Counted from the stretch's first letter, positions 5,345 to 39,784 are shown. The stretch: 40,925 bases of DNA from a virus (IMGVR_UViG_2671180437_000016:1-40925), one strand, 5' to 3'. Numbers and translations are program-made. The notes: generated by a model from the letters alone, not told the origin.

Positions 5345-5929
5345 TTATTGTTTGCTTTTTTCGTTCTGGTTGATGACAAATTCAATGTAACTTTCGATCT
5401 TTGCTTTCTCGGTTTCGGGTAACAATGCGTAGCGCGAGCGGTCATAGTTGATAGTCGCAGGGTCGTGCGGGTGAATCAGTAATTCATAGCCGTGACGCCC
5501 GAATGCGGATGCAACATTCTCCAGGGTGGAAATGGAAACGCTGACCTCATTGTTTAACAGGCGACTGATTGTCACCTGGGCGACGCCGGATGCGCGGTGA
5601 AGTTTTCCCTGCGTTGAAAGGTCGCGGCTTTCGCTCATCCAGCGTTCCAGGTTGTGAGCCGCCAGCTGACCAATGTCGCTTGGGCCGACAGGCTGAAAAC
5701 CTTCCTGAGAAAGCGAGCGATCGATATCAAGCCAGTTACGGGGTTTATTGGCGGCAGCTTCAATTTTTCGCGCAACCTGGTCGCCGATAACCTTCTTGCC
5801 AAGAGCCCAGCGGTTTACCAGATTTGCCTGAGTTCCAAGTTTTTCTGCCATCCGCGTCTGAACACCATTGAATTCACGGTCGATCAAGTCGTTGAGATTT
5901 TGCCTGCGGACGTCCTGGATACTTTTCAT
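5345..5929 (-). CDS. Prophage repressor (CI-like, two HTH regions, no recognisable S24 autocleavage domain)
   Basis: 194 aa, divergent from Cro-like gene across an operator-rich spacer; HTH-like segments 'MAEKLGTQANLVNRWALGKK' and 'ASGVAQVTISRLLNNEVSVSISTLENVA'; no Ala-Gly/Ser...Lys peptidase motif seen. Confidence 0.7.
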   Translation of the reverse strand: MKSIQDVRRQNLNDLIDREFNGVQTRMAEKLGTQANLVNRWALGKKVIGDQVARKIEAAANKPRNWLDIDRSLSQEGFQPVGPSDIGQLAAHNLERWMSESRDLSTQGKLHRASGVAQVTISRLLNNEVSVSISTLENVASAFGRHGYELLIHPHDPATINYDRSRYALLPETEKAKIESYIEFVINQNEKSKQ

Positions 5930-8330: not shown

Positions 8331-8377
8331 TAAAATATTCTAAAATCTATTGATTTCGTGTCTTATGTGGTTTTTAA

Positions 8378-15440: not shown

Positions 15441-15603
15441 GAACTGGAAGCAATGAGTTATGCCTTCCGTGGCTGTACGGGTTTACAGCATGAAGTCATC
15501 GCAATGGCGTCCTGCTGTAAAAAGGGCGGTGATAGTCCTTCAATGGAAACCATCACCGCCAAGCACCTGGAACTTCTGGCATCACGGTCCTTAGGCGTGA
15601 TTC

Positions 15604-15680
15604 TGGCGTGGCATGCAGGATTCGAACCTGCGACCAACCGCTTAGAAGGCGGTTGCTCTGTCCAACTGAGCTAATGCCAC
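15604..15680 (-). tRNA. tRNA-Arg (anticodon UCU)
   Basis: 77-nt cloverleaf read on minus strand: acceptor GTGGCAT/ATGCCAC, D-arm GCTC...GAGC, anticodon stem ACCGC/GCGGT with loop CTTCTAA (anticodon TCT), T-arm GCAGG-TTCGAAT-CCTGC, discriminator G + CCA. Confidence 0.85.
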
Positions 15681-16017: not shown

Positions 16018-16107
16018 TAATTTGTGCGTTAAATGTCAACTATCTACGATAAATAAATCATATGTGGTTAAATTGGTGATAATTTAATTGCGTACGGAGT
16101 CATTGAT

Positions 16108-33580: not shown

Positions 33581-34267
33581 TCAGAAGAACCCTGCTTTGT
33601 CGTTGATATACTCCGCGTGGGTCTGGATATCACGCAGGCATTTGCTCACACCGACGATGTAGCAGAACATGGTGGTCAGCTCCGCCGCCGCGCCCGATAC
33701 GTCGTGCCCGTCTTCCTGTAACTGGTTCAGCAGATTCATCAGCAGTGAGTTCTCCGTCAGGCCGAGAACACCAGACGGCGAGTGAATCAGACTGCGGTAG
33801 CCGGGCTTTAGTGGGGCGCTGTAGGTTTTGTTCTCTATCTTCATTGCCTGCATCACTGCTGATGCTGTGGCGTTGGCTACCTGGTCGGCAACCATCTTTA
33901 TGCGTTCTTCTTGCGGGAGCGAGTTTTTAATGTAACTTCCGGTGCGGCGGATCTGAGGAAGAACCTCACCTGTAACCCATTTACGAAAGCGGTATGGGAT
34001 AGTGCCTGGTGTCACCGCATCGCGGCAGCGGAGGATCAGTGTGTAGAGGCCTGACTCGTTGATAATATTGGTTTCGCCTTGACGGCCTAAGTTAAATTTA
34101 GCCCTTTCATCATCATCAAGAGATTTTATTGACATAGTGGGGTTTGTCAGTTGAAGAGCTTTAATAACGTCTTTGGCAACAAACCAAGGATTTCCATCAA
34201 TAACAATGGCTCGAATGGTTGCTTCTGATTCAAAATGAAAAACAGATGGGGTTACGTTAGCAGTCAT
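33581..34267 (-). CDS. Antirepressor (BRO-N domain N-terminus, Ant-like C-terminus)
   Basis: Start at MTANVTPSVF (ATG 34267, SD AAAGGTGA); 'VFHFESEATIRAIVIDGNPWFVAKDVIKALQ' is a BRO-N signature; C-terminus homologous to 35413..35670 product. Confidence 0.7.
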   Translation of the reverse strand: MTANVTPSVFHFESEATIRAIVIDGNPWFVAKDVIKALQLTNPTMSIKSLDDDERAKFNLGRQGETNIINESGLYTLILRCRDAVTPGTIPYRFRKWVTGEVLPQIRRTGSYIKNSLPQEERIKMVADQVANATASAVMQAMKIENKTYSAPLKPGYRSLIHSPSGVLGLTENSLLMNLLNQLQEDGHDVSGAAAELTTMFCYIVGVSKCLRDIQTHAEYINDKAGFF

Positions 34268-34533
34268 AGTGATCACCTTTGTAGTTAGGTTAATCACCAC
34301 TACCGACGCCAATCGGTTGGTGGTGAACTGTGCAGGGTTGGCGTAACCGGCTACAAAGGACCCGGCGCACCTTTCGGTGCCCCCACACAGCCCACCATAG
34401 AATAGGTGCGCTTTACACATAAAAAAACCGCTTATGCGGCATATGTGCCCCTGTAGTAATCCGGGACGCCAATCCCGGCACTGGATTTTGCCAGTACCCG
34501 ATTACTATGGCACAAGAGGAGTGCAATGTAAAT

Positions 34534-34548
34534 TTACCGCAAAGGTAA
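34534..34548. promoter_or_regulatory. Operator-like palindrome TTACC-GCAAA-GGTAA
   Basis: Perfect site in 394-bp divergent spacer; followed by CAACC-N6-GGTTG inverted repeat (34575-34590). Confidence 0.55.
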
Positions 34549-34626
34549 TGATAAACGCGAAGAAATATTAAAATCAACCGTATTTGGTTGATTGCGTTTA
34601 ACGCTTGATCACCTGAAAGCAAGATA

Positions 34627-34641
34627 TTACCTTTAAGGTAA
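34627..34641. promoter_or_regulatory. Operator-like palindrome TTACC-TTTAA-GGTAA
   Basis: Perfect site 20 nt upstream of ATG 34662. Confidence 0.55.
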
Positions 34642-34661
34642 TGTTATTGTGAGGAAAAGCA

Positions 34662-35390
34662 ATGGAAGTTTTCTGGATAGTTGTTGGTGTGGTTGCGGTG
34701 ATTATTTACGTTATCAACCAGAACAAGACTAAGATCTCTGATCGTACGGTCGTTAATCATAACAAAACGATAAAGACCGAAGATGGGGAGATAACGATTA
34801 ATCGTACACAGGTTATAGAACACACCTCTACTCAGTTTCAAAAAACTGGAGGTAATGCGCCTAATATTTCCGCACCTCCTGCTTATGATAGTGCGGTAAT
34901 CCAGACATATTATAAACAGCAGGAGTTAGCAAAAGAGAGGCAACTGATTCAGCCAAAGCCGTTTACAGCTGAGCTTCCACCTGGAGTGTCAACGCGTCCG
35001 GCATATCATGGAAGATTCCCTGGTGATGACATATCGTCTCAGTCATCTAAAAAAGCACCTCAGGCAGTATCAGAGCCAGCAAGAATACCTTCTGTATCGC
35101 CGCCAAAAGAAGAATCAGCTAACAGAGTTTCAAGTGGTAGCAAGCAGTGCTTGCGATGCAGAATAAACCTACCATATGAAAAATTCAGGAAATCGTCAAA
35201 AAATCCAGATGGATTGACTAAGTGGTGTGCAAGGTGTCTCGATGGCCCAAAGAATACACGCCATATGAAGTGGTGCCCAATTTGTAATGTCCGCAGAAAA
35301 CGAACAAGCTTTTACCCTAATAATCAAAATGCGGATGGCTTAATGGCATGGTGCAAAACGTGCTGGGACGAGCACAAAGCGAAACGATAG
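34662..35390 (+). CDS. Membrane-anchored protein with four C-terminal CxxC motifs (zinc-ribbon-like), unknown function
   Basis: 242 aa; N-terminal TM helix 'VFWIVVGVVAVIIYVI'; C-terminal 'CLRC','WCARC','WCPIC','WCKTC' with internal repeat 'DGL(T/M)(K/A)WC'; SD GAGGAA. Confidence 0.6.
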   Translation: MEVFWIVVGVVAVIIYVINQNKTKISDRTVVNHNKTIKTEDGEITINRTQVIEHTSTQFQKTGGNAPNISAPPAYDSAVIQTYYKQQELAKERQLIQPKPFTAELPPGVSTRPAYHGRFPGDDISSQSSKKAPQAVSEPARIPSVSPPKEESANRVSSGSKQCLRCRINLPYEKFRKSSKNPDGLTKWCARCLDGPKNTRHMKWCPICNVRRKRTSFYPNNQNADGLMAWCKTCWDEHKAKR

Positions 35391-35414
35391 GCCGCTCTTG
35401 CGGCCTTTAAATTT
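35390..35414. terminator. Bidirectional terminator between convergent genes
   Basis: Stem GGCCGC/GCGGCC, loop TCTT, followed by TTTAAATTT. Confidence 0.5.
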
Positions 35415-35670
35415 ACCGGGTTTGTTTTCGTAATTGTTCGGCACAATAGTCGAGATGTGTTTGCAGATCCTGCATAGACATCTGTGAGCTGGTGACATAG
35501 TTAATCAGTGCAGTCAGTTCGGCAAGTGGGCCATCGACATTAAATCCATCCTTATCGAGATCCCGGAGTAATTTCATCAAGTGCGATCCCTCCACCAGTG
35601 ACCTGACGCCTCCCGGCGTGTGAATCCTTTCGGTAAATCCGTCTTCCAGTGGATAGTGATACTGCTGCAT
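35413..35670 (-). CDS. Small antirepressor-like protein under a LexA box (candidate SOS-induced antirepressor)
   Basis: 85 aa from ATG 35670 (SD GGAGAAG; track ORF uses TTG at 35688); 'RIHTPGGVRSLVEGSHLMKLLRDLDKDGFNVDGPLAELTALINYV...DLQTH' aligns with C-terminus of 33581..34267 product; LexA box 20 nt upstream. Confidence 0.6.
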   Translation of the reverse strand: MQQYHYPLEDGFTERIHTPGGVRSLVEGSHLMKLLRDLDKDGFNVDGPLAELTALINYVTSSQMSMQDLQTHLDYCAEQLRKQTR

Positions 35671-35689
35671 CTTATCTTCTCCATGCAAT

Positions 35690-35709
35690 AACTGTATATT
35701 TATACAGTA
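35690..35709. promoter_or_regulatory. LexA (SOS) box AACTGTATATTTATACAGTA
   Basis: CTGT-N8-ACAG with AT-rich spacer, 18/20 match to E. coli consensus TACTGTATATATATACAGTA; only such site found in the window. Confidence 0.75.
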
Positions 35710-35744
35710 TCAAATAATTTGTTTGCTATCCAGCACGTTTTGCA

Positions 35745-35759
35745 AATTACCCGAAAGGT
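35745..35759. promoter_or_regulatory. Operator-like palindrome TTACC-CGAAA-GGTAA upstream of tail fibre gene
   Basis: Perfect site; followed at 35793 by CATATGTGGTTTTT motif. Confidence 0.55.
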
Positions 35760-35865
35760 AATATCTATTCGTATTCACAGTCTTTCTATCCATATGTGGT
35801 TTTTCAGGTAATAAAATAACCAGATATGCGGCGCAACGGGTGCTGCGACTATCTGGAGATTTAAC

Positions 35866-37626
35866 ATGACGGTCTCAACCGAAGTTGACCACAACGAATA
35901 CACCGGTAACGGTGTTACAACGACATTCCCTTATACCTTCAGGATTTTCCAGAAATCTGATTTAGTAGTGCAGGTTGTTGACCTGAACGAGAACATCACA
36001 GAGCTGATTCTTGATACTGATTACATAGTCACTGGTGCGGGAGGGTATAACGGCGGCAATGTAATTCTGTCGAAGGCGTTGGTTAACGGTTATCAGATTT
36101 CTATATCAAGAGAGCTACCGGTTACGCAGGATACCGATCTGCGCAACCAGGGTAAGTTCTTCGCTGAGGTGCATGAGGACGCGTTTGATAAGCTAACGAT
36201 GCTGATCCAGCAGGTTCGCAGTTGGTTTGCCTTGGCGCTGCGCAAGCCATCAACCATCGCTAACTGGTACGACGCGCTGGGGAATTACATTCGCAACCTG
36301 CGCGACCCACGAGACCCGCAGGATGCTGCCACTAAAAATTATGTAGACACGATTAGTAACAACAACTATCTACACACGTTAAGGGTTCCAGAATCATTTA
36401 CGCGGCAACTCCCTCCTGCTGCAGAACGTGCAAATATGATCCATGCATATGATTATGCAGGTGAGTCCATTATGGTCTTGCCTGAGAGCGGTAGTGCAGC
36501 AGATGTTCTGTTATTGCTGGCGCAACCTGACGGGCTTAAGAGGATTGGCACAAAAGTTAATTACGGTATACCGGTTGGATCTACTTTAACCGATGGCGTC
36601 ACTTTTTCTTTTGATAAGGATAAAGGTTGGCTGAGAATTGGTGGTGCCGATCTCCTACCACTTGACGATGAAAAGAACTTCTGGAGAGGCTTGCCTACAC
36701 CGAGAAATTCATGGTGTAACCCGGCTCTTATCGGTGATTACTCAGTATCTTTTAACAGAAACGGTGCGTCATTCGCGGTATACACCACAACTTTCGGGCA
36801 TGACTGCGTTACGTATGGCGTGGCATCTATTGCCGGTGGTGCTGGTTCTGCTACTGGCGACCCAGATCAAATTACCTCACCAAATGCTGAAGGGTACTGC
36901 TCTTTTGCATTTGGGAAAAATGTCATTGCTCTTGGCGCAAAATCTGCCGCATTCTGTGAAGAAACGGAAGCGCTTTCAAGGGCGGCTTTTACAACAGGTT
37001 ATTTTACGCAAGCCAGACCGGGATACACTACAGACCCCGGCGGGGTTGCAAGTGATGGCATTGGTGCGGCAGCCATTGGATATCGAACTCGCGCGGCAGG
37101 AGATGGCTCTTTTGCTGTAGGTAAGAATATTCAGGCTTATGGTGGTTCGATTGCGATAGGGAGCGGCACTAATGACGATAAGCCAGCAATCAATCCACAT
37201 AAAGACTCAGTGATGCTTTTTGCAGAATCGCTTATTCCAGGTATTGCCGTCGTCCCTGGTGGTGGTTCGCTGACGCGTGTAGGGGTGCACACAAAATATC
37301 CTAAAGAAATTTTGGAAGTAGTTTTAGAGGATGGGGGTCGCGCAGCTATCAGAATACCAGGGGTAGGAACTGGAAGGATCTTGCTACAAGGGACAGATCA
37401 CAACGGCAATGCACTTTCTATTGCGTCGCTTGAATGGATAAGCGGAAACGAAGGTAGTGCTGTTGGTTCGTTGAAAATAAACATGAACAACGACGCACCA
37501 TGCATTGAATTTCTGGAAGATGGCAAGGTGGTTTTGAAGAACGTAAAAACGCTTGAGGAGATAAACGGCGCCACCGCGGGCACCATCTATAAGGATGCTT
37601 CAAATTTCCTTAAAATTGTTGTTTAA
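35866..37626 (+). CDS. Tail fibre / tailspike protein
   Basis: 586 aa; N-terminal 'EYTGNGVTTTFPYTF' is typical of podovirus tail-fibre particle-binding domains; Gly-rich C-terminal region. Confidence 0.75.
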   Translation: MTVSTEVDHNEYTGNGVTTTFPYTFRIFQKSDLVVQVVDLNENITELILDTDYIVTGAGGYNGGNVILSKALVNGYQISISRELPVTQDTDLRNQGKFFAEVHEDAFDKLTMLIQQVRSWFALALRKPSTIANWYDALGNYIRNLRDPRDPQDAATKNYVDTISNNNYLHTLRVPESFTRQLPPAAERANMIHAYDYAGESIMVLPESGSAADVLLLLAQPDGLKRIGTKVNYGIPVGSTLTDGVTFSFDKDKGWLRIGGADLLPLDDEKNFWRGLPTPRNSWCNPALIGDYSVSFNRNGASFAVYTTTFGHDCVTYGVASIAGGAGSATGDPDQITSPNAEGYCSFAFGKNVIALGAKSAAFCEETEALSRAAFTTGYFTQARPGYTTDPGGVASDGIGAAAIGYRTRAAGDGSFAVGKNIQAYGGSIAIGSGTNDDKPAINPHKDSVMLFAESLIPGIAVVPGGGSLTRVGVHTKYPKEILEVVLEDGGRAAIRIPGVGTGRILLQGTDHNGNALSIASLEWISGNEGSAVGSLKINMNNDAPCIEFLEDGKVVLKNVKTLEEINGATAGTIYKDASNFLKIVV

Positions 37627-37742: not shown

Positions 37743-37847
37743 TTTCGTTAAGAATTATCAGATCAAGTTTAATCCACATATGGTTTATTGTGTATGATGA
37801 ACTAACCAACTAAGGGGATTCTTTATGCACATTAAACGGTGTTTTTT

Positions 37848-39660: not shown

Positions 39661-39784
39661 TTTTCGGTGACGGTATATAAAACGGTACGGTGAAAATCAG
39701 GTTGCAGAAAGTTGTTATCAGTCAATTGGTTATGCGTGTCGTAAATAATTGAGTGGGAATGATTTGACCCTGCACTATGAATGA

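Follow-up and report, generated by a model that had tools for sequence, protein, structure and literature searches.

A probable LexA-Ant-Rep antirepression switch of the SPC32H type, and a Bro-N-fused antirepressor paralog, in an Escherichia coli Uetakevirus

The stretch of DNA analysed here (40,925 nt, hereafter the window) was identified by DNA and protein searches as a temperate E. coli podophage of the phiV10/TL-2011b/ZX5 type, an epsilon15-like member of the genus Uetakevirus. Table 1 lists the features that are discussed below. A small antirepressor gene, ant, is divergent from the tailspike gene, which starts at 35866 on the plus strand; this layout is common to SPC32H, epsilon15, phiV10, Tyrion and BUCT554. 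On its other side, ant is separated from a second, longer antirepressor gene by a 242-aa ORF on the opposite strand. The latter shows weak matches to Stc1, endonuclease VII and a Lar-like zinc finger. It is absent at the equivalent spot in phiV10 and ZX5, is represented only by a misc_feature in TL-2011b and looks like a moron insertion. The hairpin towards which this ORF and ant converge is probably a bidirectional terminator. Elsewhere, the window includes a tRNA-Arg gene (anticodon UCU; 15604-15680, minus strand) and a single exact copy, at 39748-39764, of ATTGAGTGGGAATGATT, which has been reported as the attP core of phiV10, epsilon15 and ZX5, phages that integrate at the 3' end of guaA.

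Table 1. Coordinates of the antirepressor and repressor genes and of the associated regulatory features, counted from the first letter of the window
Feature	Position	Strand	Basis
Rep, prophage repressor, 194 aa, presumed Ant target	5345..5929	-	5D50_A match
Long antirepressor, 228 aa, Bro-N plus small-Ant-like C-terminal domain	33581..34267	-	Pfam Bro-N 5e-20
C4 target sites a2 (34306-34312, TTGGCGT) and b2 (34276-34284, CTACAAAGG)	34276..34312	-	Complementarity to C4
C4-type antisense RNA in the long ant leader	34316..34402	-	Rfam RF01695, 79.5 bits (gathering score 45)
isrK-type sRNA with its own terminator	34421..34497	-	Rfam RF01394, 73.5 bits (gathering score 50)
Promoter-like TTTACA-17-CATAGT, TG before the -10	34504..34549	-	Promoter scan; palindrome 34533-34549 directly precedes
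Second palindrome, perfect ATTACC-N5-GGTAAT, between the long ant leader and the divergent 242-aa ORF	34626..34642	.	
242-aa ORF	34662-35390	+	Hydrophobic N-terminus, Cys-rich C-terminus; full match to phrog_6762
GC-rich hairpin where the 242-aa ORF and ant converge	35389..35406	.	Terminator-like; 7 nt beyond the ant stop codon
ant, small antirepressor gene, 85 aa, SPC32H Ant ortholog	35413..35670	-	5D50_E match; 87% identity
Shine-Dalgarno GGAGAAG of ant	35676..35682	-	Direct reading; GGAG invariant in the nine-phage alignment
LexA (SOS) box	35690..35709	.	18/20 consensus, unique in the window, position conserved in the nine-phage alignment
Perfect ATTACC-N5-GGTAAT, putative Rep operator, ant-tailspike intergenic region	35746..35762	.	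Conserved in the nine-phage alignment
Inspected 17-mer palindromes	5210, 5272, 5984, 6369, 8315, 8377, 12375, 12393, 16002, 33499, 34533, 34626, 35746, 37727		

The 85-aa product of ant matches chain E of PDB entry 5D50 ('Anti-repressor protein') over residues 2-84 (E = 4.1e-47), and 75 of its 86 aligned positions are identical to the SPC32H ant product, which has 86 aa. The identity reaches 100% in ZX5 and 97.6% in phiV10. Among PHROG profiles, the protein matches phrog_450 and phrog_15539 (unknown function) as well as the C-terminus of phrog_1760. At E <= 1, the Pfam search yielded nothing beyond a sub-threshold DUF724 match, and there was no NCBIfam match. The ATG at 35670 agrees both with the annotated SPC32H start and with the length of the crystallised chain. 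A longer frame of 91 aa, starting from a TTG at 35688, was rejected because it overlaps the LexA box and disagrees with the SPC32H start.

Positions 35690-35709 read AACTGTATATTTATACAGTA, which is TACTGTATAAATATACAGTT on the ant (minus) strand. This sequence carries two mismatches to the E. coli SOS-box consensus TACTGTATATATATACAGTA. The first-pass annotation had placed an 18/20 LexA box just upstream of the 85-aa ORF. This is confirmed, with a measured gap of 19 nt between box and ATG (35671-35689) that includes the conserved GGAG at 35679-35682. With a cut-off of at most three mismatches to the 20-mer, no other site was found in the window and none at all in 100 dinucleotide-preserving shuffles of it. 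The looser pattern CTGT-N8-ACAG occurs three times in the window for 0.55 expected. The two other occurrences, at 15473 and 20015, have GC-rich spacers and more than three mismatches to the 20-mer; they were rejected as SOS boxes and are probably due to chance.

The regions upstream of ant were aligned over a 231-nt stretch for nine phages (the window, phiV10, SPC32H, SPC32N, epsilon15, Tyrion, BUCT554, BUCT711 and Kp4865-1). The SOS box lies at an equal distance from the ATG in all nine despite diverged flanks, and it is conserved although the neighbouring genes diverge by roughly 40% at the protein level. The two Klebsiella phages of the alignment have a degenerate CTGT arm. The box of the window aligns column for column with that of SPC32H. 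SPC32H and SPC32N differ by a single base in this stretch, and this base is located inside the box: TATACAGT in SPC32H is replaced by TATAAAGT in SPC32N, a C to A change that turns CAG into AAG and destroys the CAG arm. According to the 2013 work of Kim and Ryu, this single change reportedly makes Ant expression constitutive and SPC32N effectively lytic.

The consensus promoter scan detected no sigma-70-like site at the LexA box under its thresholds. Weak candidates for an ant promoter are TTGCAA-17-ACAAAT or, overlapping the box, TGGATA-17-TACTGT. The TTGCAA -35-like hexamer of the former (35740-35745, minus strand) is abutted by the perfect palindrome of the ant-tailspike intergenic region, whose epsilon15 homologue is annotated as a protein_bind feature ('repressor / lysogeny'). 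Given the position of this operator-like palindrome next to the ant promoter region, ant might be acted on by Rep as well; the copy may serve ant, the divergent tailspike gene or both.

Rep is composed of two HTH-type regions followed by a C-terminal tail. It matches chain A of 5D50 ('Repressor') over residues 1-190 (E = 3.5e-42) and 5D4Z_A, a C-terminal fragment, with E = 3.6e-20. It is a full-length homolog of SPC32H Rep with 42.5% identity, distributed unevenly: it stands at 54% at both ends (residues 1-70 and the C-terminal 39, 156-194) and drops to 28-32% between them. At this level of identity, Ant-Rep binding in the window phage is extrapolated from SPC32H. Every Uetakevirus record found contains both Ant and Rep, and ZX5 combines an identical Ant with a 99.5% identical Rep. 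The Pfam scan of Rep (E <= 1) returned HTH families alone (HTH_3 at 1.2e-09, HTH_26 and similar), and Peptidase_S24 was not found in 5345..5929. This bears out the earlier reading of the repressor as lacking an S24 autocleavage motif, and a self-cleaving repressor was rejected on this Pfam result. In SPC32H Rep, the C-terminal CAD/TetDloop domain is the tetramerisation and Ant-binding domain (PMC9986798).

The palindrome ATTACC-N5-GGTAAT is strongly over-represented in the window, with 18 copies at no more than two mismatches where 1.2 are expected (0/100 shuffles). Fourteen of the 18 were inspected (Table 1). They are mostly intergenic and frequently paired at a spacing of about 62 nt, with promoter-like TTGACA or TTGATT elements between the two copies. 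The GenBank record of epsilon15 marks homologous palindromes as sites of predicted repressor binding, and the same consensus is present upstream of ant in SPC32H, though its Rep has diverged to the extent given above. Judged on these sequences, the palindromes are probably the operators of Rep. Another motif, CATATGTGGTTT-like, recurs at approximately 35785-35800, 8355-8370, 16050-16060 and 37780-37790, following several of the operator palindromes at a distance of about 40-50 nt downstream, on the side of rightward genes. In the nine-phage alignment of the ant-tailspike spacer the motif is invariant; it could belong to a phage promoter or represent an IHF or activator site.

The long antirepressor resembles the small one in its C-terminal part. 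Small Ant aligns with residues 147-224 of the long protein at 40% identity over 78 aa (E = 8e-16), as the first-pass annotation had stated for the C-terminal region of the BRO-N protein, and a tblastn search of the window gives the same result. The C-terminus of the long protein also matches phrog_450. The protein is 82% identical to ORF4 of ZX5, annotated as 'anti-repressor'.

The leader of the long ant gene carries an isrK-type sRNA followed by a C4-type antisense RNA. Over 9 nt, the loop CCUUUGUAG of C4 shows perfect complementarity to CUACAAAGG (b2), a segment that spans the Shine-Dalgarno sequence of long ant and stops 8 nt short of the ATG, while the C4 segment ACGCCAA is perfectly complementary over 7 nt to UUGGCGU (a2) upstream. 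Decoy targets are located within isrK (a1, 34466-34472; b1, 34448-34456). The b1 copy, CUACAGGGG, pairs imperfectly with C4, via two G-U pairs, and the corresponding RF03163 c4-a1b1 model scores 44.2 bits, slightly below its gathering score of 46.7. These pairings come from an exact-complement search across six phages; RNAduplex, run with the entire C4 against the entire leader, returned end-to-end pairings only. The pairing covaries three ways among the six phages, with compensatory changes in Tyrion, in Kp4865-1 and in ZX5/phiV10/TL-2011b. The a' segments ACGCCAA, AGACCAA and GTCTCAA are matched by a1 and a2 sequences reading TTGGCGT, TTGGTCT and TTGAGAC, respectively, and the b' segments CCTTTGTAG and CCTTTTAG by b2 sequences reading CTACAAAGG and CTAAAAGG. 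The promoter-like site of Table 1 ends 7 nt before the 5' end of isrK. The isrK/C4 module is found upstream of the Bro-N ant gene in TL-2011b, ZX5, Tyrion, Kp4865-1 and phiV10, and is absent from the SPC32H locus. The C4-type control predicted for long Ant is a known kind of control. In the ZX5 record (MW722083.1), an 'ash family protein' CDS (1382-1495) sits over the C4 RNA (1368-1453) and is likely a spurious gene call.

The leader also bears on a proposal of the first-pass annotation, that the long Ant carries a palindromic operator instead of a LexA box and responds to a different input. The isrK/C4 leader argues for the different input. However, the palindrome does not take the place of a LexA box, since a perfect copy (35746-35762) is also present directly upstream of small ant, which thus has both elements.

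We estimate at about 0.9 the probability that the window encodes an SPC32H-type LexA-Ant-Rep antirepression switch, operating in an E. coli phage. In the lysogen, host LexA would silence the 85-aa Ant by binding the box, which falls inside the ant promoter or immediately downstream of it. Upon DNA damage, activated RecA would trigger LexA self-cleavage and ant would be transcribed. Ant would then bind the C-terminal region of the non-cleavable Rep and remove the Rep tetramer from its operators, which would open the lytic promoters and lead to lytic growth. This order of events, LexA self-cleavage, Ant synthesis and inactivation of the repressor by protein-protein contact, is the one described for SPC32H (PMC7380047, citing Kim & Ryu 2013). 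There, the DNA-bound form of Rep is a tetramer, which is broken up when an Ant tetramer takes hold of two Rep dimers (PMC9638917). For the E. coli lineage, indirect support comes from ZX5, with its identical Ant and near-identical Rep, whose titre rises from 10^7 to 10^9 PFU/mL with mitomycin C (PMC9782041). Orthology to SPC32H Ant and Rep, together with the conserved position of the box, supports the earlier proposal that the small protein is the SOS-induced antirepressor. That LexA binds this box, that Ant binds this Rep and that induction of this phage depends on SOS is what we infer by analogy with SPC32H.

Could the long Bro-N antirepressor instead be the real induction factor, leaving the small LexA-controlled protein accessory or redundant, for example as a trigger whose loss is tolerated? 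Overexpression of ZX5 ORF4 reduces lysogens from 10^9 to 10^6, and the study, the one experimental paper on these E. coli phages, credits antirepression to the Bro-N protein, the small ORF being unmentioned (PMC9782041); the homology of its C-terminal domain to small Ant points in the same direction. The control region of the gene does not. The window scan places no LexA box at the long ant gene, its ribosome-binding site is predicted to be masked by the C4-type antisense RNA and its promoter abuts operator-like palindromes, so that long Ant appears to be without evident direct SOS input. Moreover, Salmonella members of the group, SPC32H included, are devoid of a Bro-N Ant and are still SOS-inducible via small Ant (PMC7380047, citing Kim & Ryu 2013). 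We therefore regard this explanation as improbable.

A different target for small Ant, such as the repressors of other resident prophages or a host function rather than its own Rep, would account for the conservation of Ant at 87% while Rep has diverged to 42.5%, and trans-acting antirepressors are known in Gifsy prophages (PMC3121763). Yet the C-terminal Ant-binding region of Rep is among its best-conserved parts (54%), the two proteins occur together in every Uetakevirus record found, and there is no alternative SOS sensor because Rep is devoid of an S24 domain. This makes another target very unlikely. Least probable of all, to the point of being almost negligible, is that the CTGT-N8-ACAG palindrome arose by chance or serves something other than LexA, and that expression of the small ORF is independent of SOS. 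The two further loose matches in the window are what could be said for it. Against them stand the 18/20 agreement with the consensus and its absence from all 100 shuffles, the conservation of the box across roughly 40% protein divergence of its neighbours, and the location inside the box of the sole SPC32H/SPC32N difference in the 231-nt stretch.

The LexA-Ant-Rep switch thus remains the preferred reading, and it may be accompanied by a second antirepressor under separate control. The promoter of this Bro-N ant, flanked by operator-like palindromes, would be followed by a P1-immI-like isrK/C4 leader that masks its ribosome-binding site. Tentatively, and with somewhat more doubt than confidence, the Uetakeviruses of E. 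coli, Enterobacter and Klebsiella might possess a two-tier antirepressor circuit in which one Rep-binding domain is used twice. The LexA-gated small Ant would be the SOS trigger. The Bro-N::Ant fusion would be made only once Rep begins failing, or on infection, and would either lock in induction by positive feedback or counter the immunity conferred by related resident prophages. The C-terminal domain of Rep would be the binding site of both proteins. To our knowledge, the pairing of a LexA-gated small Ant with a C4-controlled Bro-N::Ant has not been described to date. The SPC32H work of 2013 (Kim and Ryu) and 2016 (Kim et al.) is said to have dealt with the short protein only, and the ZX5 study dealt with the long protein only (PMC9782041).

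The practical value of the finding is in annotation. The records of phiV10, ZX5, TL-2011b and epsilon15, as well as RefSeq PGAP annotations, describe small Ant as a 'hypothetical protein'; no Pfam or NCBIfam model matches this structurally solved protein, and phrog_450 is marked 'unknown function'. The segment that includes ant and the LexA box is present, at no less than 95% identity, in 529 of 5,426 complete E. coli genomes, with carriers among O157 and other STEC or APEC backgrounds. Among the 12 matches listed, the RefSeq label is 'hypothetical protein' in 11, and no feature is annotated under the twelfth. From these counts and labels, roughly one in ten complete E. coli genomes would carry an unlabelled SOS-inducible prophage switch. 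The mechanism itself adds little scientifically, the Ant-Rep structure and the role of the LexA box being settled already in another Uetakevirus, SPC32H. A modest lead is offered by the association of small Ant with a Bro-N::Ant paralog under C4 control, which could help to account for induction lock-in or immunity override.

The observation reported here is correct but already known, as it corresponds to the published SPC32H Rep-Ant-LexA system (J Virol 87:11775; PNAS 113:E2480). Kim and Ryu in 2013 and Kim et al. in 2016 are said to have worked out this antirepression, including the Ant-Rep structure (PDB 5D50, 5D4Z). At the sequence level, the locus has all that characterises the SPC32H system: Ant, a Rep devoid of S24, the box and the synteny. 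Like the window, SPC32H carries an Ant ortholog and a full-length Rep ortholog with HTH and a C-terminal Ant-binding tail but no S24 domain, a LexA box 19-20 nt upstream of the ant ATG, and an ant gene divergent from the tailspike gene with ATTACC-N5-GGTAAT upstream; both are Uetakeviruses. They differ by the host, Salmonella instead of E. coli, and by a Rep with only 42.5% identity. Compared with SPC32H and epsilon15, the second, Bro-N-fused Ant paralog with its isrK/C4 leader is found only in the lineage of the window.

The first-pass annotation had drawn a parallel with the Gifsy and Tum antirepressors, and this holds for the mechanism. The antirepressors of 186 (Tum), Gifsy-1, Gifsy-3 and Fels-1 follow the same logic, in which LexA represses a small antirepressor of a non-cleavable repressor. 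In 186 and in Gifsy/Fels-1, the repressor is inactivated by protein-protein contact (Shearwin 1998; Lemire 2011, PMC3121763). The parallel does not extend to the protein family. Small Ant belongs to the SPC32H Ant family (phrog_450), and no sequence relationship to the Tum or Gifsy families was found with Pfam, NCBIfam and PHROG profiles. Kim and Ryu reportedly describe Ant as a structurally distinct class of Podoviridae antirepressor.

In its leader, the long ant locus resembles the immI region (c4-icd-ant) of P1 and P7. As in immI, a C4 RNA (RF01695) is located in the antirepressor leader, and the a'/b' pair faces a2/b2 at the ribosome-binding site and a1/b1 upstream. The a1/b1 copies of long Ant sit in an isrK-like terminated sRNA, which is reminiscent of the isrK-orf45-anrP arrangement of Gifsy-1. 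However, unlike P1 immI, the locus has no icd-like ORF: the spacing between C4 and the ATG is 48 nt, which leaves no room for one. Also unlike P1 immI, the promoter of long ant abuts Uetakevirus operator-like palindromes, and the protein combines Bro-N with an SPC32H-Ant-like domain (phrog_450), an architecture that differs from that of P1 Ant1/2. Translation of anrP, an antirepressor-like gene of Gifsy-1, is under the control of isrK (PMC4825925), and the same combination of isrK, c4 and Bro-N as in the window has been reported in APSE phages (PMC7313666). Set beside these systems, the duplicated Rep-binding domain is the sole modestly new angle of the window: its predicted presence in two proteins, one LexA-gated and the other fused to Bro-N behind C4, suggests a trigger-plus-lock or anti-immunity arrangement.
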